The position numbers were made by a program, and so were the translations under genes. The notes under the pieces are model-generated. The model was not told where the DNA came from. It made no database searches and saw only the letters and a program-made list of their open reading frames with translations. A stretch of 64,000 nucleotides of DNA from Clostridia bacterium (lineage in GTDB: Bacteria > Bacillota > Clostridia > Oscillospirales > CAG-272). The stretch lies in the NCBI GenBank assembly GCA_017938885.1, contig JAGBAS010000116.1, positions 2,760 to 66,759 of the forward strand, in the 5' to 3' direction. Positions 43,301-64,000 of the stretch are shown one piece after another (position 1 is the first letter of the stretch; every line of letters starts with the position of its first letter).

Positions 43301-43313
43301 AGGAGATGAAAAG

Positions 43314-43626: not shown

Positions 43627-43630
43627 ATAT

Positions 43631-44289: not shown

Positions 44290-44314
44290 CCGCCCCGGGA
44301 AAGGAGAACCGAAC

Positions 44315-45877: not shown

Positions 45878-46381
45878 GTGGCAAGAGGCGTTAAAATCGA
45901 GGACTGGGAGACGGAGGAGGCGTTGGCATTGCTCAAATCGGTGTCGTCGCTGACGATGGAGGAGATCGCCACGAGGGTGATCGGTCTCAAGAGCCGCAGG
46001 ACGCTCTACAACTGGTGCAACAAGTCAGAGGCCATCAACAAGGCCCTCCAGCAAAAGGTGGACGAGGAGACGCGGCGCGAGGTGGAGGCAGAGGTGATCA
46101 AGAGCTGCTTCGTTCGCAAAATGAAGGTCAAGACCAAGAAGCAGGCCCTGGACCGAGACGGCATCGTGCACGATCTTGAAGAAGTCCGGGAGTACGTCAT
46201 CCCCCCGGACTTCCGGGCGCAGGCCTACGTGCTCAATAACAGAGCGCCCGGGCGGTGGAGCCAGAAGCCTGTGGCGGAAGTCGATGATACCGCCGTCGCC
46301 GGCTTCATCCCCGTTCCCGACCTGATGGACGATCCTGATGAGGACGCCGGAGAGGATACGGAGGTCAGGGACATTGAGTAA
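45878..46381 (+). CDS. Terminase small subunit
   Basis: GTG at 45878, 5 nt after AAAGGAGGG. HTH-like MEEIATRVIGLKSRRTLYNW and C-terminal ..AYVLNNRAPGRWSQKP. It lies directly upstream of TerL. Confidence 0.7.
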   Translation: MARGVKIEDWETEEALALLKSVSSLTMEEIATRVIGLKSRRTLYNWCNKSEAINKALQQKVDEETRREVEAEVIKSCFVRKMKVKTKKQALDRDGIVHDLEEVREYVIPPDFRAQAYVLNNRAPGRWSQKPVAEVDDTAVAGFIPVPDLMDDPDEDAGEDTEVRDIE

Positions 46382-47849: not shown

Positions 47850-49844
47850 ATGAGCAAAGTGACAGAAAAAATCAAAAACATATTCTCGCCCAAGCCCGTA
47901 AATCCCCAGACGTCTGCGAAAGCAGAGGACGGAGGGGATGCCAAGGCGAGCCCCAAAACCACCATCGGAAAGAAAGAGATCGAGTACGCGGGCCGACTGC
48001 TCAACGAGTACGTGATGGCCAAGAGACCCACCGACAACCGAATCCTCAACGAGGAAGAGTGGTTCCGCCTGCGGCACGTTCCCGCCGATCCCGTGAACCC
48101 CAAGACAGCCTACGAGGGGGAGACGGTACCAAACGACACCGGGACCATCAAGCAGGCCTCCAGCCTCCTCCTCAACTCCGTCCGCAACAAGCACGCGGAC
48201 AGCATGGACAACCAGCCCCGCGTCAACATCCTGCCCAGGCAAGAGGACGACGAGGATGAGGCCGCCGTCCTGACCGCGATCATGCCCTCTATCCTCGCCC
48301 AAGCGAGATTTGAGCAGATGTACGACGACGCGATGTGGTCCAAGATCAAGCACGGTGTGGCGGTCTTCCACGTCTTCTGGAACCCGAAGGCGGACGGCGG
48401 CCTCGGCAGCGTCGGTATCAAGAAGGTAAACCTCCTGAATCTCTTCTGGGAGCCGGAGGCGGAGGACATCCAGGATTCCGAGAACGTGTTCTACGTCCGC
48501 AAGATGAGCATCGCCAAGATCAAGCGCAACTACCCCAACGTCAACGTGGATGAGCTCAACACCAACGCCGATACCGCCGAAGAGTACGAAGACAATCCGA
48601 AGCGTCAGATGACCACCAAGGCCGACGTGGTAGACTGGTACTACAAGATCGAGCGGGACGGAAAGACCATCCTTCATTTCGCGCAGTTTGTCGGTACGCA
48701 ACTCATCTACGCTACCGAGAACGACCCAGAGATGGCGGAAAGAGGCCTGTACGACCACGGCAAATACCCCTTCATTTTCGACGTCAACATACCCCTGGAG
48801 GGTCAGCCCATCGGCTTCGGTGAGATCGCCTGCGGTAAAGGTAAGCAAGAGTGGGTAGACGTTCTGTGGGCAAAGATCATGGAAAACACCGAGTGGTCAG
48901 CCACGGCACGGTACTTCGCCGAGCTCGGAAGCAAAGTGAATCTGAAGGATTTCTGCGACCCGAAAAAGAAGATCGTGGAATACACGGGAACGCCGGACGG
49001 GCTGGTGCGTATCGAGACCGCGCCCATCCACGGGAGCATCCTCCAGATCCTGGATATGCTCAAGGACGAGCTCAAGGAAACCACGGGGGCGAGAGACGCG
49101 GCCACCGGTGGTACGTCGGGAGGAGTGACAGCCGCGCAAGGTATCGCCATTATGAGCGAGAACAGCGGCAAGACCAGCCGAGACAGCAACCGAGGATCCT
49201 ACAGAGCCTTCGCGGAGGTGATCGAAATGGTCATCGAGCTGATCCGCCAGTTCTTCGACAAGCCGCATTACTACCGTTTCTCGGGCGAAGGATACCAAGG
49301 CTACATCCGCTACAAGAACGACGGCCTCAACTATCAGCGAATCCGCAACGAAAACGGTATTGTGTCCAACGGCGAGGCAAGACACCCGCTTTTTGACCTG
49401 GAGATCACGGTCGAAAAGAACAGCACCTACACAAGGCTCCAGCAGAATCAGCTGGTACTCCAGCTGTACAGCGCGGGCTTCTTCAACCCGCAGAATAGTG
49501 CGTCCTCCCTGACCGCCCTGGAAATGATGGACTTCGACAAGAAGAACGAGATGCTGCGCAAGATCCGTGAAAACGACTCGCGCCAGCAGCTTATGGTAAC
49601 CATTGCCCAGGAGAACGTACAGATCTGCGCCGAACTGGATCGCAAGAATGCCGAGGACGGCATCACCACCAACTTTACCGCCCAGGCACAGCAGAAGCTG
49701 GCCTACATCCAACAAGCGATGGGAGCGGTCAAGGGAGCATCTGCCCCCCCCTCCGCGCCTGTCAACACTACGGCAGGCGTACAGGAATCCTCGGCCATCA
49801 CCAAAGCCAAGGAGCGGGTAGCGCAGTCCACGTCGGCAACGTAA
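47850..49844 (+). CDS. Portal protein
   Basis: 664 aa, immediately after TerL and before the Prp/scaffold/capsid genes. Assignment is by position and size. Confidence 0.75.
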   Translation: MSKVTEKIKNIFSPKPVNPQTSAKAEDGGDAKASPKTTIGKKEIEYAGRLLNEYVMAKRPTDNRILNEEEWFRLRHVPADPVNPKTAYEGETVPNDTGTIKQASSLLLNSVRNKHADSMDNQPRVNILPRQEDDEDEAAVLTAIMPSILAQARFEQMYDDAMWSKIKHGVAVFHVFWNPKADGGLGSVGIKKVNLLNLFWEPEAEDIQDSENVFYVRKMSIAKIKRNYPNVNVDELNTNADTAEEYEDNPKRQMTTKADVVDWYYKIERDGKTILHFAQFVGTQLIYATENDPEMAERGLYDHGKYPFIFDVNIPLEGQPIGFGEIACGKGKQEWVDVLWAKIMENTEWSATARYFAELGSKVNLKDFCDPKKKIVEYTGTPDGLVRIETAPIHGSILQILDMLKDELKETTGARDAATGGTSGGVTAAQGIAIMSENSGKTSRDSNRGSYRAFAEVIEMVIELIRQFFDKPHYYRFSGEGYQGYIRYKNDGLNYQRIRNENGIVSNGEARHPLFDLEITVEKNSTYTRLQQNQLVLQLYSAGFFNPQNSASSLTALEMMDFDKKNEMLRKIRENDSRQQLMVTIAQENVQICAELDRKNAEDGITTNFTAQAQQKLAYIQQAMGAVKGASAPPSAPVNTTAGVQESSAITKAKERVAQSTSAT

Positions 49845-49853
49845 GGAGGATAT

Positions 49854-50213
49854 ATGGTAACGATAAACATCGAAAAGGACAGAGAAAATTCCCGCATTGC
49901 GATCACGGCAGAAGGCCACGCAGGAGCGGGAGACCCCGGACAGGATCCTGTTTGCGCGGGCATCTCCGCTATGATGATCGGCTATGCCAAGACGGTGATA
50001 GCCTCTGTAGCGGCGGGATTTGTGGACGAATCGCAGACCAAGATCAACGTAGGAGGACGACCGGGCCACGGACATATCGAGACGGTATGCCTCACAGACA
50101 ATGACTTCAGAATCCTTGCCTGTGCGTTGATGCCGGTCGAGCTCTTCTTCAAGGAGCTTCAAGAAAACAACCCTGAAAACGTCAAGCTTTTGTACCACCC
50201 CTGCGGGGAGTGA
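49854..50213 (+). CDS. prp: Prp-family (ribosomal-processing cysteine protease-like) protease
   Basis: ITAEGHAGAGDPGQDPVCAGISAMM (His/Cys dyad context). 119 aa. SD AAGGAGG. Confidence 0.8.
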   Translation: MVTINIEKDRENSRIAITAEGHAGAGDPGQDPVCAGISAMMIGYAKTVIASVAAGFVDESQTKINVGGRPGHGHIETVCLTDNDFRILACALMPVELFFKELQENNPENVKLLYHPCGE

Positions 50214-50264
50214 TATGAAATAAAAAACGGTGCGCCCACGTTACGGGCAGAGAGGAGGGTCCAC

Positions 50265-51098
50265 ATGATGGATACCAACACACGGGCAGAAAGGTTCGTC
50301 GTTGCCCTTGACCTGCAAATTTTTGCGGAGAGTGATTCAAGCGGGTCGAGCGGTGCGGAGAGCGGCACTGCGGAAGGCGTAAATACCGACACCGCCAACA
50401 GCGGTGCGGCTCCGTCCGAGCCTTCGGCGGAGAAGAGCGGAGGCGTCGATATCGCCTCCATCAAGAGAGAGCACAATCTCATGAGTTTTGAGGACGCGAG
50501 GGGTCGCTTTGCGAAGGACATCCGACAGTCCAAGGCATGGGAGGCAGAAGCGAGCCTGCGAAAGGCACTCGGTCAGAGGTACGGTGTGGATCCTGATGAC
50601 ATTGCCGCCATCGAGGCCGCCGTAAAAGCGGATAAGTCGTACATCAAGGAATTTGCAAGAACCAACGGCACAAGTGACGAGCTGGCGGAGAAGCATCTCC
50701 GGTACAAGGCGGACTCCGAAGCCCGAGTACGCGAGGAAACGGAACGTCAGACCGCCGCGCAGAACGAGATGATCGCGCAGGAGGAAGCCAAGGTCAAGGC
50801 TCTCTACCCGGATTTCGATATGGCCGAGGCCATGAAATCCAACCGTTTCAAAGCCATGATGGACAGCGGCATGACCATGCAGGAGGCATACGAAGCCATG
50901 AACTACCGTAGGCTTACGGATCAGGCCGTCGAGAAAGCTGTGAGAGAAGCCGAGGATAGACTTTCCAAGGCTCCCGCAACCAACAGACCGACAGAAAGCG
51001 CGTCCGTTGGCGGAGGCTCGGAAAATACGGCGGGAATCAATTTCGATCTCATGTCCGACGAGGAGCTGGAGGATTGGCTTGATAAGCACAACCACTAA
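50265..51098 (+). CDS. Scaffolding protein with L27-like N-terminal leader
   Basis: Leader ..FVVALDLQIFA|ESD. The protein is helical and acidic. It sits between the protease and capsid genes. Confidence 0.7.
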   Translation: MMDTNTRAERFVVALDLQIFAESDSSGSSGAESGTAEGVNTDTANSGAAPSEPSAEKSGGVDIASIKREHNLMSFEDARGRFAKDIRQSKAWEAEASLRKALGQRYGVDPDDIAAIEAAVKADKSYIKEFARTNGTSDELAEKHLRYKADSEARVREETERQTAAQNEMIAQEEAKVKALYPDFDMAEAMKSNRFKAMMDSGMTMQEAYEAMNYRRLTDQAVEKAVREAEDRLSKAPATNRPTESASVGGGSENTAGINFDLMSDEELEDWLDKHNH

Positions 51099-51128
51099 AC
51101 CCATGACTCTCCGCAGAGAGGAAAGAAA

Positions 51129-52265
51129 ATGAAAATCAACGTAAGACCCGATTTCGAGTTCCTGGTGGTGTTTGATTTGCAGATCTTCGCGGACGTTGTC
51201 GTTCCCGAGAACGCCGCCGGCAACATGAACACCACCACCAGCGAGGGGCTGACCGCCGACCAGAAGAACGCGATGAACACTGAGTTCATCCGCAAGGCTG
51301 AGGCGAAGCTTGTCTTCAACAAGTACGGCAAGAAGATCAACATCGGCCTGCGCAAGGGCAAGAAGATCGAGCTGTTCAAGATCGGACGTACCGACCCCAA
51401 GAACACCAAGAAGCTGGCTGAGGGCCTGACCCCCGATCCCTCCAAGATGGCGCTGGAATCCTTTGAGATCCCCGTGGCGCAGTACGGCGACTGGATGATC
51501 TTCACCGACGAGCTGCTCACCACCAGCCTCCACGATCTCTTCCGCGAGGGTAAGCGTATGCTGGCCCGTCAGCTGGCCGAGACCTACAACATGTTCACCT
51601 ATGAGCATCTGGTGGCCAATGCGCAGCGCATGTACTGCAAGCCCATCAACGCCGATGGAACGCTGGGCGCGAGACCTACCAAGACTACCGAGGTGACCGA
51701 AACCTGCCGCCTGTCCTTGAAGACCATCGTCCGCGTCGTGGCCATGCTCAAGGCGGACGATATCCCCGGTGTGATCGGGGATGACTACATCATGTACATC
51801 CACCCCCACAACTGGCACGATCTGATCCTGGATCCCGAGTGGCAGAAGTTCCACCTCAACGACTCCTCCAATATGCAGTCGGGCGAGCTGGGCCGCATTG
51901 CCAACTGCCGATTCATCGACTCTTCCTTGATCACTATCACCAAGGGTACGGTGACCATCGATGGCGCGGACGGTGAAGAGACTGTCGTCATCGGCGGCGG
52001 CGCGAACGGCTCCATTCCCCTGTACCACAACATCATCCTGGGCGGGAACGCCTACGGCGTGGTGGACATCGCCAACAAGGGGATCCGCGCAATCGACAAG
52101 GAACTCGGATCCGGCGGTGTGGACGATCCCCTGGATCAGAGAGCCTCGACGGGCGGTAAGTTCTGGTGGGGGTGCGGTATCCTCGACGAGCTGGCCCTCT
52201 ACGACGTGGTATGCACCTCCGACGAGTTCGCCGACGAGTTCGACGAGGACGAGGCCACGGCATAA
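51129..52265 (+). CDS. Major capsid protein with L27-like N-terminal leader
   Basis: Leader ..FLVVFDLQIFA|DVV. 378 aa, located after the scaffold gene. Confidence 0.8.
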   Translation: MKINVRPDFEFLVVFDLQIFADVVVPENAAGNMNTTTSEGLTADQKNAMNTEFIRKAEAKLVFNKYGKKINIGLRKGKKIELFKIGRTDPKNTKKLAEGLTPDPSKMALESFEIPVAQYGDWMIFTDELLTTSLHDLFREGKRMLARQLAETYNMFTYEHLVANAQRMYCKPINADGTLGARPTKTTEVTETCRLSLKTIVRVVAMLKADDIPGVIGDDYIMYIHPHNWHDLILDPEWQKFHLNDSSNMQSGELGRIANCRFIDSSLITITKGTVTIDGADGEETVVIGGGANGSIPLYHNIILGGNAYGVVDIANKGIRAIDKELGSGGVDDPLDQRASTGGKFWWGCGILDELALYDVVCTSDEFADEFDEDEATA

Positions 52266-52290
52266 GCTGAGGACGGAAAGGAGATAAAAA

Positions 52291-52554
52291 ATGGCAGAAA
52301 CCAAGAAAAAGACCGCAACCGTCTACGTCAAGAAGAGCGAGTATGAGACGGCATCGGGCAAGAGATGTGAGATCGTTGCCGTCAACGGCGTGAGACGGTC
52401 TCTCCTGTGTGACCGTAACAACACCACGACTCCAGCCATCGCGGCGGAGTATAAGAATCGAGTGGCGCTGAGGACCGTGGCTCTGCAGCACATTGCGGAG
52501 GCAAAGGCTAAGATGCGCAAGAAGGAAGCCGAGGCCAACGCCAACGCCGAGTGA
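52291..52554 (+). CDS. Hypothetical virion-module protein (87 aa)
   Basis: SD GAAAGGAG upstream. Located after the capsid gene. Confidence 0.55.
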   Translation: MAETKKKTATVYVKKSEYETASGKRCEIVAVNGVRRSLLCDRNNTTTPAIAAEYKNRVALRTVALQHIAEAKAKMRKKEAEANANAE

Positions 52555-52629
52555 CGTCGGCCTTACAAAGACCCAATCAATTTCTGTGGGGGCGGGCATA
52601 GCCCGTCCCCCTTTTGAAAGGAGGCAGCA

Positions 52630-53001
52630 ATGAAGATCTTCGATGCCATTGCAAAGCTGAAGCGAAGAAACCACGACGCAGACCCCTTGGAGGTAGCCGA
52701 GTGGCTGGATGACCTGGACGGTCACATCTACAACACCCTTGTGCTGGGGCACGAGGGCTACGACAAGATCAAGAAAGAAAAATACGTTGAGGGCGAGAAC
52801 GCCAGGACGGAAGCCGTCCTCCTTGCTCCCGAGCCCTACAGCGAGATGTATATACACTACCTGGAGGCCCAGAGCTACTACCGCGAGGGAGACTACGAGC
52901 GGTACAACAACGCCATGAGCCTCTACAACGCGGCGAGAGCGGAGTTTGACCGCTACTGGATCACCACCCACAGCCTGATCCAGCCCCGCGTAAGACGCTG
53001 A
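52630..53001 (+). CDS. Hypothetical head-completion/adaptor-position protein (123 aa)
   Basis: SD GAAAGGAGG. Assignment is by position only. Confidence 0.5.
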   Translation: MKIFDAIAKLKRRNHDADPLEVAEWLDDLDGHIYNTLVLGHEGYDKIKKEKYVEGENARTEAVLLAPEPYSEMYIHYLEAQSYYREGDYERYNNAMSLYNAARAEFDRYWITTHSLIQPRVRR

Positions 53002-53017
53002 CGAAAGGAGAGAGACC

Positions 53018-55003
53018 ATGCCCAACTACCTGCCTGAGCTGAGAACCAGCGGAGCGCCCCGCAGCATGGTGAATAAGTTCTGGGGACTCAACAAGACCCC
53101 GACCATAACCGACGGCGAGTTTGCCGACATGAAAAATCTGACATCGGATCGATTCCCCCTGCTGGCCGTCCGTGAGCCGAGAGGATGTCCGATCCTCAAA
53201 TACGCGGATTACGCGGATCCCGAAACCATGACCGTGACCGAGGAGCCCATCCAAGACAATGAGCAAGGAGACGCCGCGAAGCCTCGGTGCATCACCATGG
53301 CTACCGCGCCGGAAACGGACGTTTTCCAGCCCGTCTACATCGACGGCTCCAAGCTGGTGATCGGCTACCATGCCGTAGATCTTGGGATCACCGACGGGGA
53401 AAAGCAGATCGTCCACATGGGCGCGTATCTCATCGTGATCCCGGACATGGTCTACTGCAACTCGAAGGATCTCTCCGACCGAGGAAAGATCGAAGACGGC
53501 TTCTACGGAGATAAGGCCCACCCTGCGGGGGGGATGCTGACAGATGTGACCGCAACCATGACCATGTGTGACTACGATGGCAGAGACCCGGATTATATCG
53601 ATCAAGAGGAGCCGAAATTCGTTCTTTTCGAGGGTCAGTACGTAGACGATAAAGGAGTCGAGTACAATCCCAACGGCCGGCTGTGGCAGAAAACAGACGA
53701 GTACGACGGTCTGTACCGCTTTTCGACCGATGACGCGAAATGGTATAAGATCAAGTCCTACCTCAAGCTCAAGATCACGGCGAAAACCATCGCGGGACTG
53801 ACAATAAACGCGCTGACCATGAAAAAGGTCTTGCAGGAAGGCGATGCCCTCCGGTTTGAGAATCTCCACAATCTGAACGGAGGCATAACAGACGGCCCCC
53901 ATCAGGTAGCTAAGGCCTACGATCCGAAAGACGGCGGCCAGATCATCGTGGTGGAGGGCGGAACAACGGTGACAAATCTTGACATACCGCAGACCGATAA
54001 AAAAATAATCCGCGTATATCGCTACATCCCCAACCTGGACTACGCCTGCGAGAGCGGGAACCGCCTGTGGGGATGCCGATACGGAGACAACGGCATGGGC
54101 CAGTACGTCAACGAGATCTACTGCTCCGGAGCGGGAGACTTCTTCCGTTGGGGACTTGGCGAAGCCACCGATGACAGCGCCCCTGTGACCTTCTCCCTTG
54201 GATCCGATGGAGCCTTTACGGGAGCGGTCAACTACGGAGGCTACCCGACGTTCTTCAAGGAGCGGTCTATGCACCGCGTGAGCGGTTTCCTGCCGTCGGA
54301 GTTCGGGATCAGCACCGACAGCGTACCCGGCGTGGCCAGACTGGCCGCAAAGAGCCTCGCGGTAGTCGGCGGCATCCTCTACTACAAATCCCCGGGAGCC
54401 GTGATGGCCTTTGACGGCACCCAGCCCGTGTCGGTGTCCGACAAGCTGGGATCCCTGACAGCGTATCCCCGAGCCGTGGGCGGAGCCTGCGGAGACAAAT
54501 ACTACCTGTATCTGGACAAGAGCAGCCGAGCGGATCCCAATCTGTACGTGCTCGATACCAACAAGGGACTGTGGCACAGGGAGGACGAGACCGTGGTCGA
54601 GAGCATGGCAGAGGACTCCGAAAATATGTACATGATCGCCGTCAAAGGCGAAAAACACACCGTGCTGACCGTGAGAGCCAAAGGAGACCCCCAAAAGGAC
54701 AAGGTCCGCTGGTACGCCGAGACGGGACTCTTCGGCATGGAGAGCCCCGACAGAAAGTACGTCACAAGACTGGTAGTTAAGCTCAGTCCCGAGGCAGGAT
54801 CATCGGTGCGGGTCAGCATCCAGTATAATTCAACAGGCGTTTGGAAGCAGCTGTACGCCAAGGAGGGGACAGGCATGGTCACCGTGTCCGTACCCGTCCT
54901 CCCGGCACCCTGCGACCACTTCCGCCTGCGCCTGGATGGGACGGGCGGTTGTGAGGTCAATTCCATCACCAAGACCGTAAGAGACGGAGGAGAACGCATA
55001 TGA
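53018..55003 (+). CDS. Large virion structural protein (661 aa), tail/nozzle-position
   Basis: SD GAAAGGAG. Assignment is by position only, by analogy to the podovirus gene order. Confidence 0.55.
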   Translation: MPNYLPELRTSGAPRSMVNKFWGLNKTPTITDGEFADMKNLTSDRFPLLAVREPRGCPILKYADYADPETMTVTEEPIQDNEQGDAAKPRCITMATAPETDVFQPVYIDGSKLVIGYHAVDLGITDGEKQIVHMGAYLIVIPDMVYCNSKDLSDRGKIEDGFYGDKAHPAGGMLTDVTATMTMCDYDGRDPDYIDQEEPKFVLFEGQYVDDKGVEYNPNGRLWQKTDEYDGLYRFSTDDAKWYKIKSYLKLKITAKTIAGLTINALTMKKVLQEGDALRFENLHNLNGGITDGPHQVAKAYDPKDGGQIIVVEGGTTVTNLDIPQTDKKIIRVYRYIPNLDYACESGNRLWGCRYGDNGMGQYVNEIYCSGAGDFFRWGLGEATDDSAPVTFSLGSDGAFTGAVNYGGYPTFFKERSMHRVSGFLPSEFGISTDSVPGVARLAAKSLAVVGGILYYKSPGAVMAFDGTQPVSVSDKLGSLTAYPRAVGGACGDKYYLYLDKSSRADPNLYVLDTNKGLWHREDETVVESMAEDSENMYMIAVKGEKHTVLTVRAKGDPQKDKVRWYAETGLFGMESPDRKYVTRLVVKLSPEAGSSVRVSIQYNSTGVWKQLYAKEGTGMVTVSVPVLPAPCDHFRLRLDGTGGCEVNSITKTVRDGGERI

Positions 55004-55161
55004 TGAGAAAATACAAACGCCCCGCGCCGCTGAAGGGAACGGCTGACCAGAAGGTAGAGCAGCTTCGGCGGGATGTGATCGCCTTTATCAACGAGGTAGA
55101 GCGCGACATGAACGCCAGAGCGGGAGCAGATCGAAAAGAAAAGGAGAGTGCCAAGAAATGA
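55000..55161 (+). CDS. Possible small protein (53 aa)
   Basis: ATGA overlaps at both ends (55000-55003, 55158-55161). The ORF is below the track threshold. Confidence 0.4.
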   Translation: MMRKYKRPAPLKGTADQKVEQLRRDVIAFINEVERDMNARAGADRKEKESAKK

Positions 55162-56699
55162 GCTGGACCCCCTTCAAGAAAAAGAAACCGTCCGAGCAGA
55201 TCCAGGAATACCTGGACAGTAAAAAGAGTGGAGTAATACCCGGTGGAGGCAACGCGAATGCTCCTATGGCCAGGCCGTCTACACCAAATCAATACGTCGT
55301 TGGGCAAGTACAAAATCCGACCGTATCTGTTTCGAGTGGCGTAAGCGGAGGATTAAGCGGAGCGTTGAAGAGTCCCAAGCCGCCGGAAGACACCAAACCT
55401 CCGGAATATGTCCTGACGCTCCCGGAGCAGCCCCCTCAACAGGCCGAAGCAGAGAGCCAGACGCAAGGACCGACATACACGTTGACGCTGCCTACGGCGG
55501 AAGAGCAAGCATTAGCTCTTGAGCAGGCGAGGAAGCAAGCCCACATGGCCGCCTTTGCCGATCAGCTGGCCGCCATGGACGCGGAGTTCTGGCGCATAGC
55601 CCAGAATCCCGGCTCCATGCTGGGAGCCAACGAGAGCCCCTACTACAGTCTCTACATGAAGCAGTACCAGCAGAGAGCGCGGGACAGAGAGACCAACGCC
55701 TATACCCGAGCAACCGCAGGGACGGGCGGCTACGGATCCTCCTTCGCCACCATGGCGGGAGATCAGGCCTACCGTGAGACCATGCAGGAGTTTGACGAGC
55801 TGGCGCCTACCCTCATCAAGAGCAAGTCCGAGCGCATGGCCGAGATCCTGCAGGAGCGGGAAATGCTGAAGGCCATGGGAGACCGTATCAACGCAGAATC
55901 CAATACGCTGACCCTCGAAGACGGCACCACCGTAGAAGTGACCGACGCCGCCCGGGAGCTGTACGCGGGCTACCTGGACAGCTTTACCCAGGGCACCGGC
56001 TACGACACCCTGAAGACGGCCATGATCAACGGCGGCGCCAGCGAGGCCGACGCGGATCAGGCTATTGCCATGTTCAAGAAGCTGGGCGGGGCTACGGTTA
56101 CGGATAAGATCTCCGCGTTGGAGACCAATCCCACCTTGAGCGGTGCGGCTGAGGCTTACCTGGCCGCCCAACAGAACGGCACTCTTGAACAGGATGCCGC
56201 CAAGATCAGCGCAGGGGCCAGGGCCGCCGTGGAGGCCTCCCTGAAGAACGCAGGCGACAACGATGAGGCCATGAACACCGCGCTGGCCGAGGCCGCGCAG
56301 GCGGTCAAGGACGGGTACATGTCCGAGAGCGACTACGTGAGCATCATTACCGCAGACATCCACGCGGATATCAAGGATATGGAGAATGGGGAAGAGAAGA
56401 TTTCCGACCGTAAGAAGCGGAAGAGAGTGGCCCAGAGCATTGAGGGAATCATTGACGAATACGAGAATGGTGAACTTTCTGACAGAGCGTACCAAATGGC
56501 ACTTGTTGAAATGGAAGCATACATTGATAAGTATTTTACCACTGATGGTCTGAACACGGATGAAATGAGCGGTAGATCATTTGCGGCGGCGTTCGGATTG
56601 AGTGCCGGAGAAGGAGAGGCTATTTACGAGGTTGTAAAAGCTCTAAAAAAGGAAAAAGTAGGTAAAGGAACAAAGAAAGCAATTAAAGGGGGGACGTAA
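55158..56699 (+). CDS. Virion-module protein (513 aa), Ala/Gln-rich, internal-protein-position
   Basis: ORF in the same frame as the giant ORF that follows. Assignment is by position only. Confidence 0.6.
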   Translation: MSWTPFKKKKPSEQIQEYLDSKKSGVIPGGGNANAPMARPSTPNQYVVGQVQNPTVSVSSGVSGGLSGALKSPKPPEDTKPPEYVLTLPEQPPQQAEAESQTQGPTYTLTLPTAEEQALALEQARKQAHMAAFADQLAAMDAEFWRIAQNPGSMLGANESPYYSLYMKQYQQRARDRETNAYTRATAGTGGYGSSFATMAGDQAYRETMQEFDELAPTLIKSKSERMAEILQEREMLKAMGDRINAESNTLTLEDGTTVEVTDAARELYAGYLDSFTQGTGYDTLKTAMINGGASEADADQAIAMFKKLGGATVTDKISALETNPTLSGAAEAYLAAQQNGTLEQDAAKISAGARAAVEASLKNAGDNDEAMNTALAEAAQAVKDGYMSESDYVSIITADIHADIKDMENGEEKISDRKKRKRVAQSIEGIIDEYENGELSDRAYQMALVEMEAYIDKYFTTDGLNTDEMSGRSFAAAFGLSAGEGEAIYEVVKALKKEKVGKGTKKAIKGGT

Positions 56700-56702
56700 T
56701 CT

Positions 56703-59700
56703 ATGGCCGGTATCATGCGCCGAAAAGGTGAAAAAAGAGTCTACACCGGGCGAGAAGAAGTAAACACCGGAGAATACAAGGGAGGCGCACTCCGTGCTAA
56801 AGGGCAGAGCAGAAGCGGCCTCACCGTCGGTGAAACCGTAGGCTACGCCGCCAAGCGTGCCGGCACCGACTTCCTCCGCGTCGGCGAAGGCGTAGTAGAC
56901 GCCGCCCTCGTCCCCATCGACCTGATCACAGGCAACGTAGAGCAGGCCAAGTCCCGCTTCCTGGACTCCCCCGTTGACGCCATGCGTGAGCGGTTAGACC
57001 GGGAGTACAACCCCGGCAAGGTCGCGGGATTCATCGGCGATATCGCCGGCGACATCGGCCAGTCCGTGGGCTACGGTCTGATCTCCGCCATCCCCTACGC
57101 GGGGCAACCGATGATGTACTCTTCCATCATCGAGCAGAGCATATCCTCCGCTGCCGAGAAGACCGGAGAGGTAGGACTGAAGGAAGTCGGCTACGGTGCC
57201 ACGGTGGGAGGCTTGGAGGGCCTGCTGGAAAGCAAGCTCGGCGCTGGCGTGAATGCCTTCAAGGGCATCGGCTCTGCGATCCTCAAAAAGACGGGTCTCA
57301 ACGTGGCCGAGAGCGCGGCCAAGGCGGGCGGGAAGACCATGCTGAAGAGCGTGCTGACCGAGACCGCCAAGGGAGCAGCGGGCGAGTTCGCCGAGGAGGC
57401 CATCTCCGAGGCCGTGGATCCCGCCCTCCTGCGCCTGTACAACATCGACGAGAACGCGCAGTTCTCCCTGAAGGACGTGGCCTACGCGGGCCTCATCGGC
57501 GGCCTGTCGGGCGGTATGATGTCCGCAGGACCCGCCGCCATCAACTACCGTAGCTCCGTCAGCGTGGGCCGAGCCCTCCAAGAAAGCGGCATGGACGGCG
57601 ATCTGATCAACCGTGCCAAGTACACGCTATCCGCCCTTGAGGCCGCCCAGACGCGCTCTACGAGCCAAATAAAGGGCAAACCGGAGGGGGACACCAAGGA
57701 GACCGCCAAGGAGTGGCTGTCCCGCACCGCCGAGAACCGTAAGGTCAAGAGGCTGTCCAGAGAGACCAAGGAGCTGGCCGACAAGGTTCGAAAGAACATT
57801 GACGCCTACGAGAAATACAGGGCTGATCCCAAAATGTCCAATTCCGAGCCCGTGGCCGCCCTGCTGGGCGAGCTGCGCGGGAACCTGTTCCTGGTGGGCT
57901 ACGCCTACGAGGCGGACGTGATCGAGCAGGTCATGATGGACGCCACCGACGAGCAGAGACAGGCTTTCGTGGACGCCGTCAACGAGGAGCTGAAAAAGCA
58001 AGGAAAGAAGCACGACTACACCCTGGCCGACTTCGATGCCAATAAAGACGACATCCGCCGAGGCCTCGCGGGCCTGCTGATGGCTGACGAGATGCAGGGA
58101 TATACCGTAAAGTACGGCGCGGAGGCCACGGAGAGCCCCGTAGAACCCGCACAAGCCCCGCAGGACACCACAGCCGAGGAAGTGGCCGACCAAGAGGAAA
58201 ACGCCGCTACAGAGGATTTGAGCGGTATTGAGGAAGAGGTGTGGAGAGCGGTGACGGATGAAACCGTCAAGGGATACGGTACCCAAAACGAGCAGGAGGA
58301 GGCTCTCCTCCGCGCCGCCGTCTCTCAGAATGTCCCCGAAAAGTCCATTCCTCTCATGCTGGAGAGATTCCGCGAGGGAACAGACATGACCCCCGCCGAA
58401 TTCGCAGACGCTTGGGCAGACGGAGTATTACTGTTCGGACGGCTCGGCTTGAACGAGAAAAAGATCAGCCAAGAGAGCGCACTATCCCGCATGAGCGAGA
58501 AAGCGCGGCACGCCTCCATCGAATACGGTAAGTACCTTTCGGAGGAGCAGAGAGCCAAGGAGCAGGAGGCAGCCAAAAAGAAAAAGCGCCCCGTGAAAGA
58601 GGGCGCAAGCAAAAAGCCGAAGGGCGAAGTCGTGAGACACCCCGGGATCAATCTCAAGGAGGATTTGGACGACGCCCAGTTTACCGCCTACAAGGCCGCC
58701 GAGATCATGGCTCCTGCCCTGAAGGCTGACATTGAGATCCACAAGGGACTCAAGCGGGATGGCAAGGAGGTCAATGGCTACTACGATCTGAAAACCAACA
58801 CCATCCACGTCAACATCAACGCGGTGCGTGACGGAAAGCATATCGCTCTCTACACCCTCGGACACGAGGTAACGCACTACATCAAGGAGTGGTCTCCGAA
58901 GAAGTTCTACGAGCTGGGCGACTACGTAATGGATCAGCTGGGAGAGGGAGCGGAGAAAGCAGTCCGTGACAAGCTGGACTTCCTGAAAAAGAACGATCTT
59001 GTCAAGGGTCTGGACGAGACCGAAGCCTACGACCGAGCCTATGAGGAGGTCGTTGCCGATGGCATGGAGCTTGTGCTGACCGACGGAACGGTGCTGAACG
59101 AGCTTGCCCGTGAGAACAAGACCCTTTGGCAGAAGATCAAGGACAGGATCTTCGAGATCATTGAAAAAATCAAGAAGGCCTACGGCGATCTCAGCAAGAC
59201 CTCCCGCACGGCACAGATCCTTTCCGAGACCATGGACTCGCTGGACGAGATCGAGCAGCTTTTCTACGAGGGCGTAAGAGAGGCCGGAGAGAGAACGAGG
59301 ACGGCGGGAGTTGGAGAGGCTGTCGGAAACGGCAACGAAATAATTTATTCTTCCACTGAAAATTTCAAGGAAGACAAATACTTCAAATCGCAGATGGCAA
59401 AATGGGAAAATCTGAAACATGGTTCCTATGTAAAAGTAGGAACGCTTGGAGAAGGAAGCCCATTGTGTCAGGTCGGGATGCCATCGGGAACGATTCGCTA
59501 TGACGTAGACAAGTTAAAGAGAAACATAACAGATCATGACGACTATTTGACTGTTGAACTATTGAATGAAATTCCCAACATATTGGCTAATCCAGTAGCG
59601 ATCAGCGAATACAGCCAAGAAAACACAATCAGCGTTTTCGGGGATGTGTTCGTCGGAAAATCGCCTATGATGGTTGGAGTAACAATTTCGCACGACAGAG

Positions 59701-62700
59701 CAGGAAATGAAATTAGCAAGGTAAGAACATACAACACGAGAAGAGACGTTGGAAATTTAATAACCGACGAAACGGTTCTTTACCTGGGAGAAGACAAAAA
59801 AAGAACCCGTGAATGGTTCCAAGCCTGTGGGATACAAGTCCCGTTAGGGGGAACCAAATTCGGGTTCATACGTAGTATAGCACAAAGAAAGTATTCTGTC
59901 AATAGCAAATTCTCAATTTCCGAAAATATTCCTTCAACCCTTTCCGCCGAAGATCAAAACCTCCTGTTTGATGCCGACTTCTACGAGCGGTACGAGAACG
60001 AAAGCCGCGAACCCATCACGGAGACAGTGGAGGAGCTGGAAGCTGCCAAGGCCTCAGAAGCATTCGCCACAATGAGTGACGATGAAGCGTTTGACCTGAA
60101 TGCCAAGCTAAAGGCCAAGCGAGCCGGATACGATACCGTGTACGACTATTATGTAGAGACTGAAAAGGAGCGCATGGCCGAGGAGTACCGCCGCTACGTG
60201 CAGACGGGACGGAGCAACCGCACGTCGAGAACCTTGGAAGAGAAGCGGAAGAAAGCACAAAAGGAGCGCACCTTGCGTTCCAATGTGGATTCTGCAACTC
60301 CCTTGCAGAACGCCCAGTATCAGATCATTCAAGAAACCAATCCCATGTGGGACGAGTATCACACGGGCATTCGTTCACCGAAGGAGATCAAGACCTTTGC
60401 CGAGGTGGCCGAGGATCCAGACAGCTTCACGTGGGGAGACTTTACCCGCGAGGATGCACGGAAGGCTCTGCGAGACGGTACGGTTCGTGTGTACAGTTCC
60501 TACGCCATCAAGAACGGCGTATTTGTCTCTACTTCCTATCAGCAAGCCTTGGAATACGCCGGAAACGATCCTGCCCGCGTTCACAGCCGTGTCGTTGCGC
60601 TGGACAGCGTGGCGTGGATCAACGGAGACGAGGGGCAGTATGCGAAGGTTTACAAGGATGATGGGATCCGTTACTCCATCGACGAAACCCCCGAAACCCC
60701 AGACGTCTCCGATTCTGCCGCCACCGACCGAGACATGCTCCTGGCCATGGCCGAGAAGCTCGTAGGCTCCGAGGAGGAGAACAGGATCCTCACCAACTAC
60801 AAGTCTCACTACGATACCCAGAAATCCCGTCAGGCAAAACTGGACGAGCTGACCGCCGAGATGCGGGAGCAGCAGAGCACCATGATGTACGGCGAGTCCG
60901 CCGAGAGGCGTTCCGCCGCCGCCAAGAGATTACCCGCCATCTACAAAGAGATGAGCAAGATCTCCGAGCAGCTGGCCGACGCTGACCGCAAGCTCACCGA
61001 GATTGAGGGCATGAAGGCCATCCGCAACCTCCTGAAGCGGGAGTACGCCAAGGCCCGTGAGATCCAGAAGAACATCTACGATACCCGCGCCAAGGTCAAG
61101 CGGGAGGCCGCAGAGACCACCGAGCTTCGCCGAAAGACCCGCCGCATCTATAACCGAGTCCTCCGTCTGCTGGTCTCTCCCAACCGTAAACGCAACATCC
61201 CCTACGAGCTGCAGGGCATAGCCGCCGAGGCTCTGAAGACCGCCAACATGGACATAGAGGCCATGGAGCGGCTGGAAAAGCTGGAGCAGGAGCTGACCGC
61301 CTTAGAGCGGGAGGCCGTACCGAACCCCGAGAAGATCGCCCAGAAAGAGGAGGAGATCGAGGCCCAGGAGAAGAAGGTCGGCAAGACCAAGGATCACCTG
61401 CAGGTCATGATCGAGATCTTCGAGAAGGCCAAGAACATCAAGGAGGGCGTAGGCCGCAGCGTGTACGACGAGGCCGCGCTGGCCAAGCTCAAGGATCTGC
61501 AGAGCAAGATCGGCAACACCACCATCGGAAAGATGAACCGAGAGCAGCTGCAAGCCCTCAAGGATTTCTACGACATCCTCTACACGAGGATCAGCAACGC
61601 CAACAAGATGCTGTCCGAGGAGCGGGAAGCCACGGTCGAGGAGTACGGCTCCAAGGCCACCACCGAAGCCTCCGACGCCAAATCCCTGAAATTCCTCTCC
61701 CCCAAGTCCATGGAGCTGAAGGGAATGGCCAATGTGCGGCAGTTCTTCTGGAAGAACATGAAGCCCTTGACCGTCTTCGAGGCTATCGGCTCCGACACCT
61801 TCACACGGCTGTTCCAGTCTGTTCTCAACGGTGAGAACGTCTGGGCGCGGGACATCGAGGAGGCTCGCAAGAAGATCGTGGAGACCCGCGAAAAGTACGG
61901 CTATGACAAGTGGGAGCTGGACAAGAGAGTCGAGGTCAAGGACAAGGACGGCAAGACGGTACGCCTGTCGCTGTCCGAGATGATGTCCCTCTACGCCTAT
62001 ACCAAACGCAAGCAGGCCATGGGCCACTTGGAGGGCGGCGGCTTCGTGCTGGATCCCGGTGCCACAGAGATGGCGAAGGGCAAGGTGATCAGCTTTGCCG
62101 ACATGGAGCGCAGGCTCAACCATGCGGAGCGCCACGTGGTGGATCAGCTGATCATCGGCGAGATCGCCTCCAAGCTGACAGCCGAGCAGAAGGCCTACGT
62201 GGACGAGATGCAGACATACCTAACCAAGCTGGGCGAGCGAGGCAACACCGTTTCCCGCAAGCTCTACGGTATCGACATCTTTACCGAGGAGTATTATTTC
62301 CCCATCAAGGTCCAGAGCGAGTATCTGGAGTCTCACACGGGACGCACGGGAGATCCCAACATCAAGAACCGAGGCATGACCAAGGAGGTCACCCCCGAGG
62401 CGGACAATCCGCTGGTGCTCCAAGGCTTTGACGCGGTCATGGTAGACCACATCAACAGCATGGCCACCTACCACGCATTCGTCCTCCCCGTGGAGGATCT
62501 TACCCGCGTCCTCAATTACAAACCCTCCAACGCCAAGATCGACGAGGACGGCAACTGGACGGTGGACGAGTCCCGCAAGGACTACTCCACTCTCAAGGCC
62601 GTCATCGAGGAGAAGTACGGCGCGGAGGCAAACCACTACATCGAGCAGCTGATCCGCGATCTCAACGGCGGTGCGAGACGAGACGCGGCGGCCACCCTGC

Positions 62701-64000
62701 TGGACAAGGGAATCACAGGCTTCAAGCGGGCCTCCACTATGGCCTCCCTGTCGGTGCTGTTCCAGCAGCCCACCTCCCTCATCCGCGCGGCGGCCTACAT
62801 CGACCCCAAGTACCTGTTCGGTCAGGCCTCCATCGTGGATTTCGCCAACCACAAAAAGCTCTGGGAGCGGCTCTGCAAGTACGCGCCCGTGGGCATCATC
62901 AAGGAGATGGGCGGCTACGATACGGGCGTGGGAGCTCGCACCGGCGACTACCTGAACGCCAAGGTCTACAAGACCCCCAAGGAAAAGTGGGAAGCATTCC
63001 TCAAGCCTGAGCGGTTCGGCGGTGACTCCAACTACCGCGCCGAGGTATTCGGCAGGGGAGCGGCCTACGCCGACGAGATGGCATGGATCCAGATGTTCGA
63101 GGCCTGCGTCAGCGAGCAAGCCGACAAGCTGGGCAAGAGCCGAGACTCCGAGGAGGTTCTGCAGGCCGCAGGAAAACGGTTTGAGGATGTGGTGCGCCGC
63201 ACACAGGTGTATGATTCCACCCTGACCCGCACCGAGTTCATGCGATCCAAGGACACCGGCATGAAGATGTTCACGGCATTCATGGCAGAGCCCTCGACGG
63301 TGGTCTCCATGGTGGCGGATGCCATTATCAAAGGAGAACGGGGAGACACGAAATTTTGGAGAAGAACAGCGGCTGCTGTTCTTGGATCAGTCGTCCTCAA
63401 CGCCATGGCATCGTCACTCATTTACGCCATGAGAGACGATGACGAGGACAAGAGCTATGGAGAGAAATACTTATCCACCCTTGCCATGGAGACTGCAGAG
63501 GCAATCAACTTTGCCGAGTATCTGCCGTTCACCCGCGATATTATGTCACTGGTTAAGGGATACGAGGTGGAGCGCTCAGATATGGCTTTGATCGGAGATC
63601 TGGTCAATTCCATCCGACGGATCACAAGCAATAAGCAGACCGTAGGCCAAAAGATGGAGAGCGTAGGCGGAGCGGTTGCGGCGTTTTTCGGGCTTCCGGT
63701 TACCAATGTCATGCGTGATGTCAACGGGGCGATCTTCACTTTTTTCAAGACCGTGGACACCGAGAGGTTTACCGGAAAGGGTCTGTCGGTAGCCCTGAAG
63801 GAGGAATTTGACATCATGTTCGGTGTGTGGGACGATGAAATCAAGAATGGCTACCAGCTGTATCAATCGAAGCTGGACGGCGACGAAGAGCATTACAACC
63901 GCGTGGCGGCTCGTTATGAGTCCCAGAAAGACGTGGAGCTGGATCTCAGACGGGCACTGCGCTCGTTTGATCCCAGAATCCATGAAGCCGCCGAAGCCCG
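56703..64000 (+). CDS. Giant multidomain virion-type ('polyvalent'-like) protein, more than 2,432 codons, 3'-truncated by window edge; contains a HEXXH zinc-metallopeptidase motif
   Basis: I read frame 0 codon by codon from the ATG at 56703 to 63998 and found no stop. It is absent from the ORF track, presumably because it has no stop in the window. Only off-frame and antisense ORFs are listed there. HEVTH lies at 58863-58877 (..ALYTLGHEVTHYIKEW..). Confidence 0.85.
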   Translation, partial: MAGIMRRKGEKRVYTGREEVNTGEYKGGALRAKGQSRSGLTVGETVGYAAKRAGTDFLRVGEGVVDAALVPIDLITGNVEQAKSRFLDSPVDAMRERLDREYNPGKVAGFIGDIAGDIGQSVGYGLISAIPYAGQPMMYSSIIEQSISSAAEKTGEVGLKEVGYGATVGGLEGLLESKLGAGVNAFKGIGSAILKKTGLNVAESAAKAGGKTMLKSVLTETAKGAAGEFAEEAISEAVDPALLRLYNIDENAQFSLKDVAYAGLIGGLSGGMMSAGPAAINYRSSVSVGRALQESGMDGDLINRAKYTLSALEAAQTRSTSQIKGKPEGDTKETAKEWLSRTAENRKVKRLSRETKELADKVRKNIDAYEKYRADPKMSNSEPVAALLGELRGNLFLVGYAYEADVIEQVMMDATDEQRQAFVDAVNEELKKQGKKHDYTLADFDANKDDIRRGLAGLLMADEMQGYTVKYGAEATESPVEPAQAPQDTTAEEVADQEENAATEDLSGIEEEVWRAVTDETVKGYGTQNEQEEALLRAAVSQNVPEKSIPLMLERFREGTDMTPAEFADAWADGVLLFGRLGLNEKKISQESALSRMSEKARHASIEYGKYLSEEQRAKEQEAAKKKKRPVKEGASKKPKGEVVRHPGINLKEDLDDAQFTAYKAAEIMAPALKADIEIHKGLKRDGKEVNGYYDLKTNTIHVNINAVRDGKHIALYTLGHEVTHYIKEWSPKKFYELGDYVMDQLGEGAEKAVRDKLDFLKKNDLVKGLDETEAYDRAYEEVVADGMELVLTDGTVLNELARENKTLWQKIKDRIFEIIEKIKKAYGDLSKTSRTAQILSETMDSLDEIEQLFYEGVREAGERTRTAGVGEAVGNGNEIIYSSTENFKEDKYFKSQMAKWENLKHGSYVKVGTLGEGSPLCQVGMPSGTIRYDVDKLKRNITDHDDYLTVELLNEIPNILANPVAISEYSQENTISVFGDVFVGKSPMMVGVTISHDRAGNEISKVRTYNTRRDVGNLITDETVLYLGEDKKRTREWFQACGIQVPLGGTKFGFIRSIAQRKYSVNSKFSISENIPSTLSAEDQNLLFDADFYERYENESREPITETVEELEAAKASEAFATMSDDEAFDLNAKLKAKRAGYDTVYDYYVETEKERMAEEYRRYVQTGRSNRTSRTLEEKRKKAQKERTLRSNVDSATPLQNAQYQIIQETNPMWDEYHTGIRSPKEIKTFAEVAEDPDSFTWGDFTREDARKALRDGTVRVYSSYAIKNGVFVSTSYQQALEYAGNDPARVHSRVVALDSVAWINGDEGQYAKVYKDDGIRYSIDETPETPDVSDSAATDRDMLLAMAEKLVGSEEENRILTNYKSHYDTQKSRQAKLDELTAEMREQQSTMMYGESAERRSAAAKRLPAIYKEMSKISEQLADADRKLTEIEGMKAIRNLLKREYAKAREIQKNIYDTRAKVKREAAETTELRRKTRRIYNRVLRLLVSPNRKRNIPYELQGIAAEALKTANMDIEAMERLEKLEQELTALEREAVPNPEKIAQKEEEIEAQEKKVGKTKDHLQVMIEIFEKAKNIKEGVGRSVYDEAALAKLKDLQSKIGNTTIGKMNREQLQALKDFYDILYTRISNANKMLSEEREATVEEYGSKATTEASDAKSLKFLSPKSMELKGMANVRQFFWKNMKPLTVFEAIGSDTFTRLFQSVLNGENVWARDIEEARKKIVETREKYGYDKWELDKRVEVKDKDGKTVRLSLSEMMSLYAYTKRKQAMGHLEGGGFVLDPGATEMAKGKVISFADMERRLNHAERHVVDQLIIGEIASKLTAEQKAYVDEMQTYLTKLGERGNTVSRKLYGIDIFTEEYYFPIKVQSEYLESHTGRTGDPNIKNRGMTKEVTPEADNPLVLQGFDAVMVDHINSMATYHAFVLPVEDLTRVLNYKPSNAKIDEDGNWTVDESRKDYSTLKAVIEEKYGAEANHYIEQLIRDLNGGARRDAAATLLDKGITGFKRASTMASLSVLFQQPTSLIRAAAYIDPKYLFGQASIVDFANHKKLWERLCKYAPVGIIKEMGGYDTGVGARTGDYLNAKVYKTPKEKWEAFLKPERFGGDSNYRAEVFGRGAAYADEMAWIQMFEACVSEQADKLGKSRDSEEVLQAAGKRFEDVVRRTQVYDSTLTRTEFMRSKDTGMKMFTAFMAEPSTVVSMVADAIIKGERGDTKFWRRTAAAVLGSVVLNAMASSLIYAMRDDDEDKSYGEKYLSTLAMETAEAINFAEYLPFTRDIMSLVKGYEVERSDMALIGDLVNSIRRITSNKQTVGQKMESVGGAVAAFFGLPVTNVMRDVNGAIFTFFKTVDTERFTGKGLSVALKEEFDIMFGVWDDEIKNGYQLYQSKLDGDEEHYNRVAARYESQKDVELDLRRALRSFDPRIHEAAEA

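Follow-up and report, generated by a model that had tools for sequence, protein, structure and literature searches.

The subject of this work is a stretch of 64,000 nucleotides from an assembly of a Clostridia bacterium (GCA_017938885.1, contig JAGBAS010000116.1, positions 2,760 to 66,759 of the forward strand), called the window below, and a giant gene that fills its last 7.3 kb. This is a real gene in the virion module of a prophage. It encodes a polyvalent protein built as a frame with modules and carrying a conserved zincin-like domain; it unites domains of the polyvalent repertoire in one polypeptide, at a (pro)phage locus with terminase, portal and virion genes. Polyvalent proteins with a zincin hub were described by Iyer, Burroughs, Anand, de Souza and Aravind in 2017 (J Bacteriol; PMC5512222), who predicted that they are packaged, injected and self-processed. 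The giant gene is likely to specify a phage-type polyvalent protein of this kind, which a temperate, podovirus-like prophage of a gut Clostridia bacterium would carry in its head and inject. We infer packaging in the virion, ejection and processing from gene context and precedent.

Translation of frame 0 gives 2,432 codons without a stop, from the ATG at 56703 to the window end (56703-64000). The remaining five frames of the same interval contain 21-108 stops, and the chance of 2,432 stop-free codons at the local base composition is about 1e-40. GC content by codon position 1/2/3 is 0.58/0.39/0.75, a coding signature that is uniform along the gene. The ATG lies 4 nt past the TAA (56697-56699) of a gene for a 513-aa protein, and a purine-rich sequence resembling a ribosome-binding site, AAAGGGGGGA, stands 8-10 nt 5' of it. 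A protein search recovered an identical protein of 2,593 aa (P0001; NCBI MBP3667445.1, "hypothetical protein") from a metagenome-assembled genome (MAG) of a Clostridia bacterium, called on three contigs. The stop of the giant gene is therefore predicted 161 codons past the window, at nt 64482-64484. Over 56.7-64 kb the list of open reading frames (ORFs) that accompanied the sequence holds only antisense and off-frame ORFs, and the giant frame is missing because the list leaves out ORFs that run off the window end. The original prediction, made from the sequence alone, had claimed a frame of more than 2,432 codons from this ATG, absent from that list and still open at the window end. All of this holds, given the stop-free translation, the coding signature and the identical protein.

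Comparison by BLASTP of this 2,593-aa protein with 116 non-identical relatives of 2,100-3,600 aa divides it into three parts. The N part (aa ~50-880) and the C part (aa ~1320-2593) are conserved in all 116 relatives, and aa ~900-1300 are common to only 13-24 of them. The N block is set at aa ~40-875 and the hypervariable middle at aa ~880-1321. The boundaries are sharp, since homology on the N side stops at aa 862-883 and on the C side restarts at aa 1319-1322 in most relatives. The breakpoints are also found in DNA, where BLASTN against the related locus L002 covers nt 1-2615 (aa 1-871) and restarts at nt 3964 (aa 1322). The features of the giant gene are the following.

56703 to 64000, plus strand: giant gene, codons 1-2432 of 2593 (open frame and identical protein P0001)
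56820 to 57692, plus strand: Gly/Ala-rich N-terminal domain, aa ~40-330
57693 to 58619, plus strand: charged/acidic, less conserved spacer, aa 331-639
58620 to 59327, plus strand: zincin-like metallopeptidase domain, aa 640-875, with HEVTH at aa 721-725 (nt 58863-58877)
59043 to 59069, plus strand: candidate third-ligand helix EEVVADGME, aa 781-789
59340 to 59357, plus strand: degenerate motif IIYSST, aa 880-885, at the junction of N block and middle
59355 to 59891, plus strand: module 1, aa 885-1063, containing MuF_C (PF18819)
59886 to 59924, plus strand: motifs RKYSVN (aa 1062-1067) and KFSISE (aa 1069-1074), between modules 1 and 2
59928 to 60665, plus strand: module 2, aa 1076-1321, with a helical part (aa ~1079-1205) and an unannotated alpha/beta domain (aa 1213-1319)
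60666 to 60686, plus strand: motif IRYSIDE, aa 1322-1328, at the junction of middle and C block
60666 to 64000, plus strand: C block, aa 1322-2593 (to aa 2432 in the window), matching phrog_22978

The length of the middle ranges from 0 aa in three relatives (P0013, P0067 and P0103) to ~1,450 aa in P0120. Clustering of the 116 middles at 60% identity and 80% coverage yields 70 clusters, and 20 representatives are sufficient to cover at least half of every middle at identities of at least 40%. The diversity of the middle thus arises by shuffling of modules from a small repertoire. Mosaicism extends past the middle: N-block identity and the identity of the first C-block segment correlate with r=0.27 only, as illustrated by P0020 (97% and 45%, respectively) and P0010 (70% and 98%). 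The same collinear frame is found in more than 240 full-length relatives of 2,100-3,600 aa. The giant protein is a fixed two-sided frame with exchangeable contents and sharp joints. A second class of breakpoints was observed at aa ~1441-1460 (~61023-61082 of the window), within the coiled-coil start of the C block, and about 30 relatives align only from aa 1441-1467 on. This suggests that aa 1330-1440 form a further exchangeable segment.

A gene that is a mosaic of recombining parts and comes from a MAG might raise the suspicion of an assembly or annotation artefact, such as a chimeric contig or fused neighbours. This explanation is extremely improbable against the identical 2,593-aa product on three contigs, the more than 240 collinear full-length relatives, the 3,525 sequence clusters that contain the C block (see below) and the uniform coding signature.

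The module borders are marked by a short motif of the form IRYSIDE, RKYSVE, KFSISE or PKFSLSE, and its positions coincide with the breakpoints in both protein and DNA. In relatives that share only module 2, homology starts at aa ~1055-1069. Occurrences were counted with the pattern x[RK][YF]S[ILVMDE][DSGNER][EDQRS], and the expectation was taken from shuffled sequences. The close relatives contain 114 occurrences vs 2.3 expected, and the distant relatives 66 vs 4.2 (~50- and ~16-fold). All but one of the occurrences (179/180) fall between the peptidase domain and the C block, and the C block itself contains none. The relative P0041 carries three IRYSIDE copies, one behind each module, and DIRY, IRYS and YSDR are among the commonest 4-mers in the middles of distant relatives. 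The motif could act as a joint at which homologous recombination takes place. The built-in peptidase could also use it for processing, a function compatible with a role in recombination. A text search of Iyer et al. (PMC5512222) for linker or cleavage site found no mention of an inter-module motif.

The N block begins with the Gly/Ala-rich domain (G+A 0.30), which is present in 120/120 close and 73/142 distant relatives. The Gly/Ala-rich N-terminus noted beforehand is thus real, with a G+A fraction of 0.30-0.31 over aa 101-300. A segment scan at E<=10 gave no Pfam match for aa 40-330, and this domain is a candidate signal for virion incorporation. The spacer that follows occurs in 23/142 distant relatives and likewise has no Pfam match.

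The zincin-like domain is found in 117/142 distant relatives and in 120/120 close giant proteins. HEVTH is the only HExxH of the giant protein, and it lies exactly where it had been predicted. The HExxH is kept in 235/237 relatives having the domain, and the two exceptions start inside the domain. The H, E, T, H, Y and the acidic residues of EEVVADGME, a segment located 60 residues past HEVTH, are at least 90% conserved. In an AlphaFold model built from 44 sequences, the domain reaches a predicted local distance difference test score (pLDDT) of ~90. The model runs from a helix at aa 657-673 through three strands at aa 676-704 to the helix with HEVTH (aa 715-730); a further, inserted helix precedes the one with EEVVADGME (aa 772-793). 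In this model, the order of helix, three strands, HEXXH helix and Glu helix fits the zincin core, and a candidate for the zinc-binding Glu is present among the residues of EEVVADGME. The same order of elements, with a variable insert between the two C-terminal helices, was described for the zincin core of polyvalent-protein peptidases (PMC5512222). Foldseek comparison of the model of aa 630-1340 with the PDB recovered Wss1 (probability 0.87, TM 0.42) and anthrax lethal factor (E 0.03-0.5, with probabilities reaching 0.69), both below significance. Iyer et al. had likewise retrieved the lethal factor structure with their peptidase domain (PMC5512222). PDB sequence searches with the domain returned no match.

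Of the HEXXH zinc metallopeptidase that had been predicted, the conserved motif and the zincin-like modelled order stand; no Pfam peptidase family matches, and the fold matches are weak. The peptidase reading is therefore well supported, not proven. The HEVTH domain is probably a real, divergent zincin, and it is predicted to be active. In three relatives (P0120, P0016 and P0027), a second HExxH (LLHEIQHAIQ) was observed in the variable middle, downstream of LPD23; these proteins would have two zincin-like domains.

The exchangeable contents of the middle come mainly from families known from polyvalent proteins. A Pfam scan of the 20 representative middles detected ART-PolyVal in 9, LPD3 in 6, PBECR3 in 4, LPD23 in 3, MuF_C in 3, and PARP and DUF3990 in 1 each. 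In three full-length relatives, the positions of the Pfam domains confirm their location between the two conserved blocks. ART-PolyVal, PBECR3, LPD3, LPD23 and MuF_C were all defined from polyvalent proteins (PMC5512222). In the giant protein of the window, a Pfam scan of nine overlapping segments at E<=10 detected MuF_C only, and NCBIfam gave nothing. The polyvalent make-up that had been suspected is supported by this match, which lies above the Pfam cut-off, and by the presence of ART-PolyVal, PBECR3, LPD3, LPD23 and MuF_C in the same place of relatives.

In module 1, MuF_C (PF18819) matches aa 940-1034 (nt 59520-59804) with E=2.5e-7 and 31.2 bits for the whole protein, and with E=7.7e-9 and 36.0 bits for the segment, against a curated cut-off of 27.6 bits. 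His945 falls within one alignment column of the conserved His of MuF_C, and Thr1009 stands at the position of the conserved Ser in strand 4, where the model has a pLDDT of 50-70. Iyer et al. placed MuF_C in the PBECR clade of metal-independent RNase folds (PMC5512222).

Among 15 giant proteins with end blocks of only 39-95% identity, module 2 reaches 88-99%, and a near-identical module within diverged frames points to recent exchange. The block NPMWDEYH...ALEYAG that had been singled out in the sequence (aa 1213-1287, nt 60339-60563) belongs to its alpha/beta domain, which extends to aa ~1319 and is modelled by AlphaFold2 with a pLDDT of ~95. The conserved motifs of module 2 are YHTGIRS (aa 1219-1225), FVSTS (aa 1274-1278) and NGDEGQ (aa 1307-1312). 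Of the 307 homologues of the alpha/beta domain, most are solo proteins 150-320 aa long. One solo homologue that was examined is encoded immediately upstream of the scaffold and capsid genes of another phage, and another homologue is fused to an HK97-type prohead protease domain. The solo homologue P0138, of 143 aa, starts with MKLNLQMFGGRG, which resembles a Prp-type leader. This suggests that solo forms of the domain may be processed and packaged with head proteins.

In ADP-ribosyltransferases (ARTs), the catalytic motifs come in the order H or R (strand 1), Y or S-T-S (strand 2, with a helix next) and E or D (where strand 5 begins). The succession of YHTGIRS, VFVSTS with a helix, and NGDEGQ at a strand start, invariant or nearly so in 24 sequences, resembles this order at the level of motifs only. 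FVSTS resembles the S-T-S motif of cholera- and pertussis-type enzymes. Alignment by hhalign of the module-2 domain with the ART-PolyVal domains of relatives gave a probability of 26% over 46 columns. The domain has no Pfam match, ART included (24 members, E<=10), and no PDB sequence match. Module 2 was compared with PDB folds by Foldseek only inside the model of aa 630-1340, a multidomain query that probably masked matches. An assignment as divergent ART-PolyVal was considered and rejected on the low hhalign probability and the negative Pfam and PDB results.

The C block defines the family. It matches phrog_22978 with E=2.8e-195, and no match was found in Pfam or NCBIfam. A HMMER search with the C block among 1.84 billion representatives, clustered at 50% identity, recovered 3,525 clusters at E<=1e-3 and 2,712 at E<=1e-30. 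The best 150 of the 3,525 matches are proteins of 572-4,650 aa in which the match lies at or near the C-terminus. Foldseek comparison of the modelled C block with BFVD gave 76 matches at E<=1e-3, the best at 4e-45, and those listed are mostly C-terminal pieces of giant proteins from uncultured phages. Their UniProt names follow the variable domains, e.g., Nuclease, PolyVal ADP-ribosyltransferase, MuF C-terminal domain and LPD. The occurrence in more than 3,500 clusters, together with the BFVD matches, makes the C block a hallmark of a very large family. A BFVD match to a 'structural protein' of Tenacibaculum phage Gundel_1 was discarded as too weak (rank 39, TM 0.23).

A pattern scan of GTDB species genomes located 57 loci, nearly all in MAGs of ruminant and human gut Clostridia. 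Oscillospiraceae, Acutalibacteraceae, Faecousia, Ructibacterium and Enterenecus are represented among them, along with one short fragment in a MAG labelled Staphylococcaceae. Two C-block copies with equal identity to the query were observed ~40 kb apart on JAFTXX010000014.1 (L027 and L028, 70983-79337 and 111169-119523), which suggests two related tandem prophages or a repeat made by assembly. Among 50,697 phage records, tblastn found only three unannotated human-faecal contigs.

The AlphaFold model of the C block, built from 71 sequences, is almost entirely helical (pLDDT 69, predicted template modelling score 0.62). Long charged helices at aa ~1340-1650 are followed by a mixed alpha/beta core at aa ~1650-2230, with RDLNGGARRD at 1985-1994, and by a stretch of low confidence at aa ~2235-2377. 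The latter contains the invariant YAMRDDDE (2241-2248) and KGYE[IV]ER[ST]D (KGYEVERSD here, 2285-2293). Weakly hydrophobic helices form three peaks at aa ~2190-2340, the strongest at 2222-2240 with a Kyte-Doolittle value of 1.71. The long coiled-coil stretches expected from the sequence are represented by the long helices and charged segments of aa ~1340-1650. The several hydrophobic helices claimed for the C-terminal region were found in part: three weak peaks exist (aa 2191-2336), and only the one at 2222-2240 comes near the hydrophobicity of a membrane span. PDB sequence searches with the giant protein and the family profile returned only coiled-coil and low-complexity noise.

The setting of the gene is that of a prophage. 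The leftmost 30 kb of the window are ordinary bacterial chromosome, with genes for a radical-SAM protein, an S41 peptidase and an IspH-S1 fusion, and from ~34 kb on the DNA is phage DNA with all genes co-oriented. A small terminase is also encoded in the phage region. The genes between capsid and giant gene encode, in this order, proteins of 87, 123, 661, 53 and 513 aa. The main features are listed below.

27766 to 29841: host IspH(LytB)-S1 fusion gene, adjoining the integrase gene
30173 to 31249, minus strand: tyrosine integrase, left prophage end
46338 to 56699, plus strand: whole upstream virion module, from Pfam and PHROG matches, with the same order in the related loci L001, L002 and L003
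46338 to 47849, plus strand: large terminase
47850 to 49844, plus strand: portal, P22/SU10-type
49854 to 50213, plus strand: Prp cysteine protease
50265 to 51098, plus strand: scaffold-like protein
51129 to 52265, plus strand: major capsid protein
52630 to 53001, plus strand: 123-aa protein
53018 to 55003, plus strand: 661-aa protein
55158 to 56699, plus strand: 513-aa protein

In two relatives whose contigs continue downstream (L002 and L003), the giant gene is followed by one or two tail-fibre genes, about ten small genes and then host DNA; one of these tail-fibre genes encodes a GDSL lipase domain. No gene for a tail tube, sheath, tape measure, chaperone or baseplate hub was found in the window or downstream in these two loci. 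The sole hint of a tape measure is a 192-aa protein that marginally matches one portion of a tape-measure PHROG (E=3e-4). Both the gene order and the absence of tube and tape-measure genes, on which the original prediction had based a podovirus-like layout with a giant protein, are confirmed in the window and extend to these two relatives with synteny kept. This is the layout of a short-tailed phage, with a size of ~43 kb. The genes of T7 gp14-16 are located between the nozzle and fibre genes, and by this analogy the giant gene occupies the slot of the T7 internal core genes.

The same position invites another reading, in which the giant protein is mainly a structural part of the tail or injection apparatus (a tape-measure-like ruler, a tail needle or a central fibre), is not stored in the head, and bears its enzyme modules as secondary additions. 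A gene between tail-associated genes and tail fibres stands in the tape-measure slot of long-tailed phages, the protein is long, has Gly/Ala-rich stretches and consists largely of helices, and relatives in BFVD come from contigs labelled siphovirus, myovirus or podovirus. However, morphology labels of metagenomic contigs are automatic, the tube, sheath, chaperone and hub genes are missing from the window and from both downstream regions, and the portal is of P22/SU10 type. The giant protein also matches no tape-measure PHROG or Pfam family, and a middle whose length ranges from 0 to ~1,450 aa in close relatives is hard to square with a ruler. The specific tape-measure version was rejected on the lack of tube and chaperone genes and on the variable length, and a structural tail role as a whole is unlikely.

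It is also rather improbable that the protein remains unpackaged and acts inside the cell, infected or lysogenic, as a toxin or as a multi-enzyme protein for host takeover or superinfection exclusion. In favour of such a function, the packaging step of the head-carried reading rests on context and precedent, and toxins and toxin-antitoxin systems likewise contain ART and RNase modules (PMC5512222). In addition, a giant gene of Clostridium clostridioforme LM41 lies near the prophage end and was listed by the authors among accessory ORFs (PMC11318856). The gene studied here, however, is co-oriented with the virion genes, its ATG lies only 4 nt past the stop of the 513-aa gene, and it has the same position in every relative examined. 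A conserved frame of ~2,100 aa would be a heavy cost for a carrier of cytoplasmic enzymes, and the solo form of module 2 that was examined sits in a head module.

Further observations concern the remainder of the element. The 661-aa protein matches phrog_511, 'internal virion protein', through its C-terminal half (E=5e-42) and has no Pfam match; it may be a second ejected or nozzle-type protein. Prp cysteine protease cuts ribosomal protein L27 and head proteins of the S. aureus phage 80alpha at the site LNLQFFAS, after the last A. An N-terminal DLQIFA motif is found in the scaffold-like protein (aa ~15-21) and in the major capsid protein (aa ~16-21), and we take it to resemble this site. Prp-dependent head maturation is likely, as the Prp gene stands just upstream of the scaffold and capsid genes that carry DLQIFA. 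Prp cleavage motifs are confined to the scaffold and capsid proteins, and none was found in the giant protein. Low-GC islands at 30000-34000 and 42000-44000 (0.44-0.50, vs ~0.57 in the rest of the prophage) may hold accessory or moron genes; a 364-aa ORF at 32317-33411 on the minus strand has a SWIM zinc finger only. The early region encodes a PcfJ-like protein (37612-39363) and a DUF3102 protein (39326-40465), and a rolling-circle-type replication initiator (phrog_3584) lies at 44225-45232. No tRNA gene was found anywhere in the window.

Several known systems resemble the giant protein in part. With the polyvalent proteins of Iyer et al. it shares the very large size, the multidomain composition, the location by portal-terminase head genes and the constant HEXXH hub. 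The effectors (ART-PolyVal, PBECR, MuF_C and LPD) and the extensive mosaicism of orthologues are common to both. It differs from them in that its N-terminal Gly/Ala-rich domain and its 1,270-aa C block find no match among the Pfam families of that study, its HEVTH domain is matched by no Pfam peptidase model, and its inter-module motif is not mentioned there.

Among podoviruses, proteomics detected gp47 of the temperate Stx phage phi24B (2,811 aa) in virions; the cryo-EM map does not show it, and its proposed role is that of an internal ejection protein (bioRxiv 10.64898/2026.04.10.717836). Like the giant protein, it is a giant polyvalent protein of a temperate podovirus and contains MuF_C, along with LPD domains. 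Unlike the giant gene, the gp47 gene belongs to a phage of a Gram-negative host and is found behind the tail genes, where the late region ends. Precedents for packaged and ejected proteins are T4 Alt and the virion RNA polymerase of N4, which has a zincin-like domain fused to it (PMC5512222; PMC13434306). Both this polymerase and T7 gp14-gp16 are large, are stored in podovirus heads and are expelled ahead of or with the DNA, as proposed for the giant protein; unlike them, the latter has no RNA polymerase or transglycosylase domain, and its C block has no PDB fold match. The nearest described relatives are probably the 8-kb ORFs of the C. clostridioforme LM41 prophages phi1 and phi4, elements of ~41 kb with podovirus-like particles, whose ORFs show similarity to polyvalent proteins (PMC11318856).

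The punctuation motif also has counterparts in polymorphic toxins. VENN in CdiA and PxxxxDPxGL in Rhs are pre-toxin motifs that stand at the border between constant and exchangeable parts and coincide with recombination breakpoints. The motif of the giant protein likewise marks constant/exchangeable borders and breakpoints. It differs in that it recurs between internal modules and does not stand once before a C-terminal tip. Moreover, constant parts flank the variable part on both sides, and there is no immunity gene.

On the head-carried reading, the giant protein would be made late, alongside the head and tail proteins, and its conserved blocks would bring it into the capsid. At infection it would be expelled through the portal and the short tail, like the T7 internal core proteins and the N4 virion RNA polymerase, and the conserved blocks might aid the passage of DNA across the Gram-positive envelope. 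The built-in peptidase would then cut the chain, plausibly at the punctuation motifs. The freed modules could target host RNA or proteins within minutes of the start of infection. In the giant protein, these would be a predicted RNase of PBECR/MuF_C type and the unannotated domain of module 2.

A number of points weigh against this proposal. The presence of any family member in virions is a prediction. Cleavage at the punctuation motif is a guess, and the motif could serve recombination only. Pfam peptidase models do not match the HEVTH domain even at E<=10, and no Foldseek match to the PDB reaches E<=1e-3 for the zincin fold. In the C block, the hydrophobic segments are weak, and a membrane-channel role is thus speculative; comparison with PDB folds by Foldseek gave a best E of 0.16, including any phage ejection proteins in that copy of the PDB. 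Neither hmmsearch nor hhalign detected homology between the giant protein and phi24B gp47, which is therefore cited as an analogue only. The LM41 ORFs are compared by description only.

A wider interpretation, which is possible but held tentatively, would join these elements into one picture. The family could represent a very widespread, undescribed frame for effector delivery, used by phages of the gut and the environment, whose C block is a new head-stored ejection or translocation module with a fold unlike that of the T7, P22 and N4 ejection proteins. The punctuation motif would then be both a recombination joint and a cut site of the zincin. The module-2 domain would be a new effector, possibly a minimal ADP-ribosyltransferase, that phages would also use as a small head-packaged protein.

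The giant size, the zincin hub, the effector domains, the mosaicism and the predicted packaging are already covered by the polyvalent-protein concept, and the findings overturn no current ideas; the roles remain predicted. What is added here is the delimitation of constant N and C blocks, the size of the family, the two-sided frame with sharp joints, the punctuation motif and an unannotated domain that also occurs in a head module. Polyvalent proteins are thought to be the first phage proteins delivered into the cell, and very few have been studied. The family is large, with more than 3,500 clusters at 50% identity and more distant structural matches in environmental phages, and both of its defining conserved blocks are without annotation or known structural relatives. 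Its sharp recombination joints are natural sites of module exchange. Recognition of this family would explain many of the 'hypothetical' genes of 7-14 kb in gut-virome annotation.

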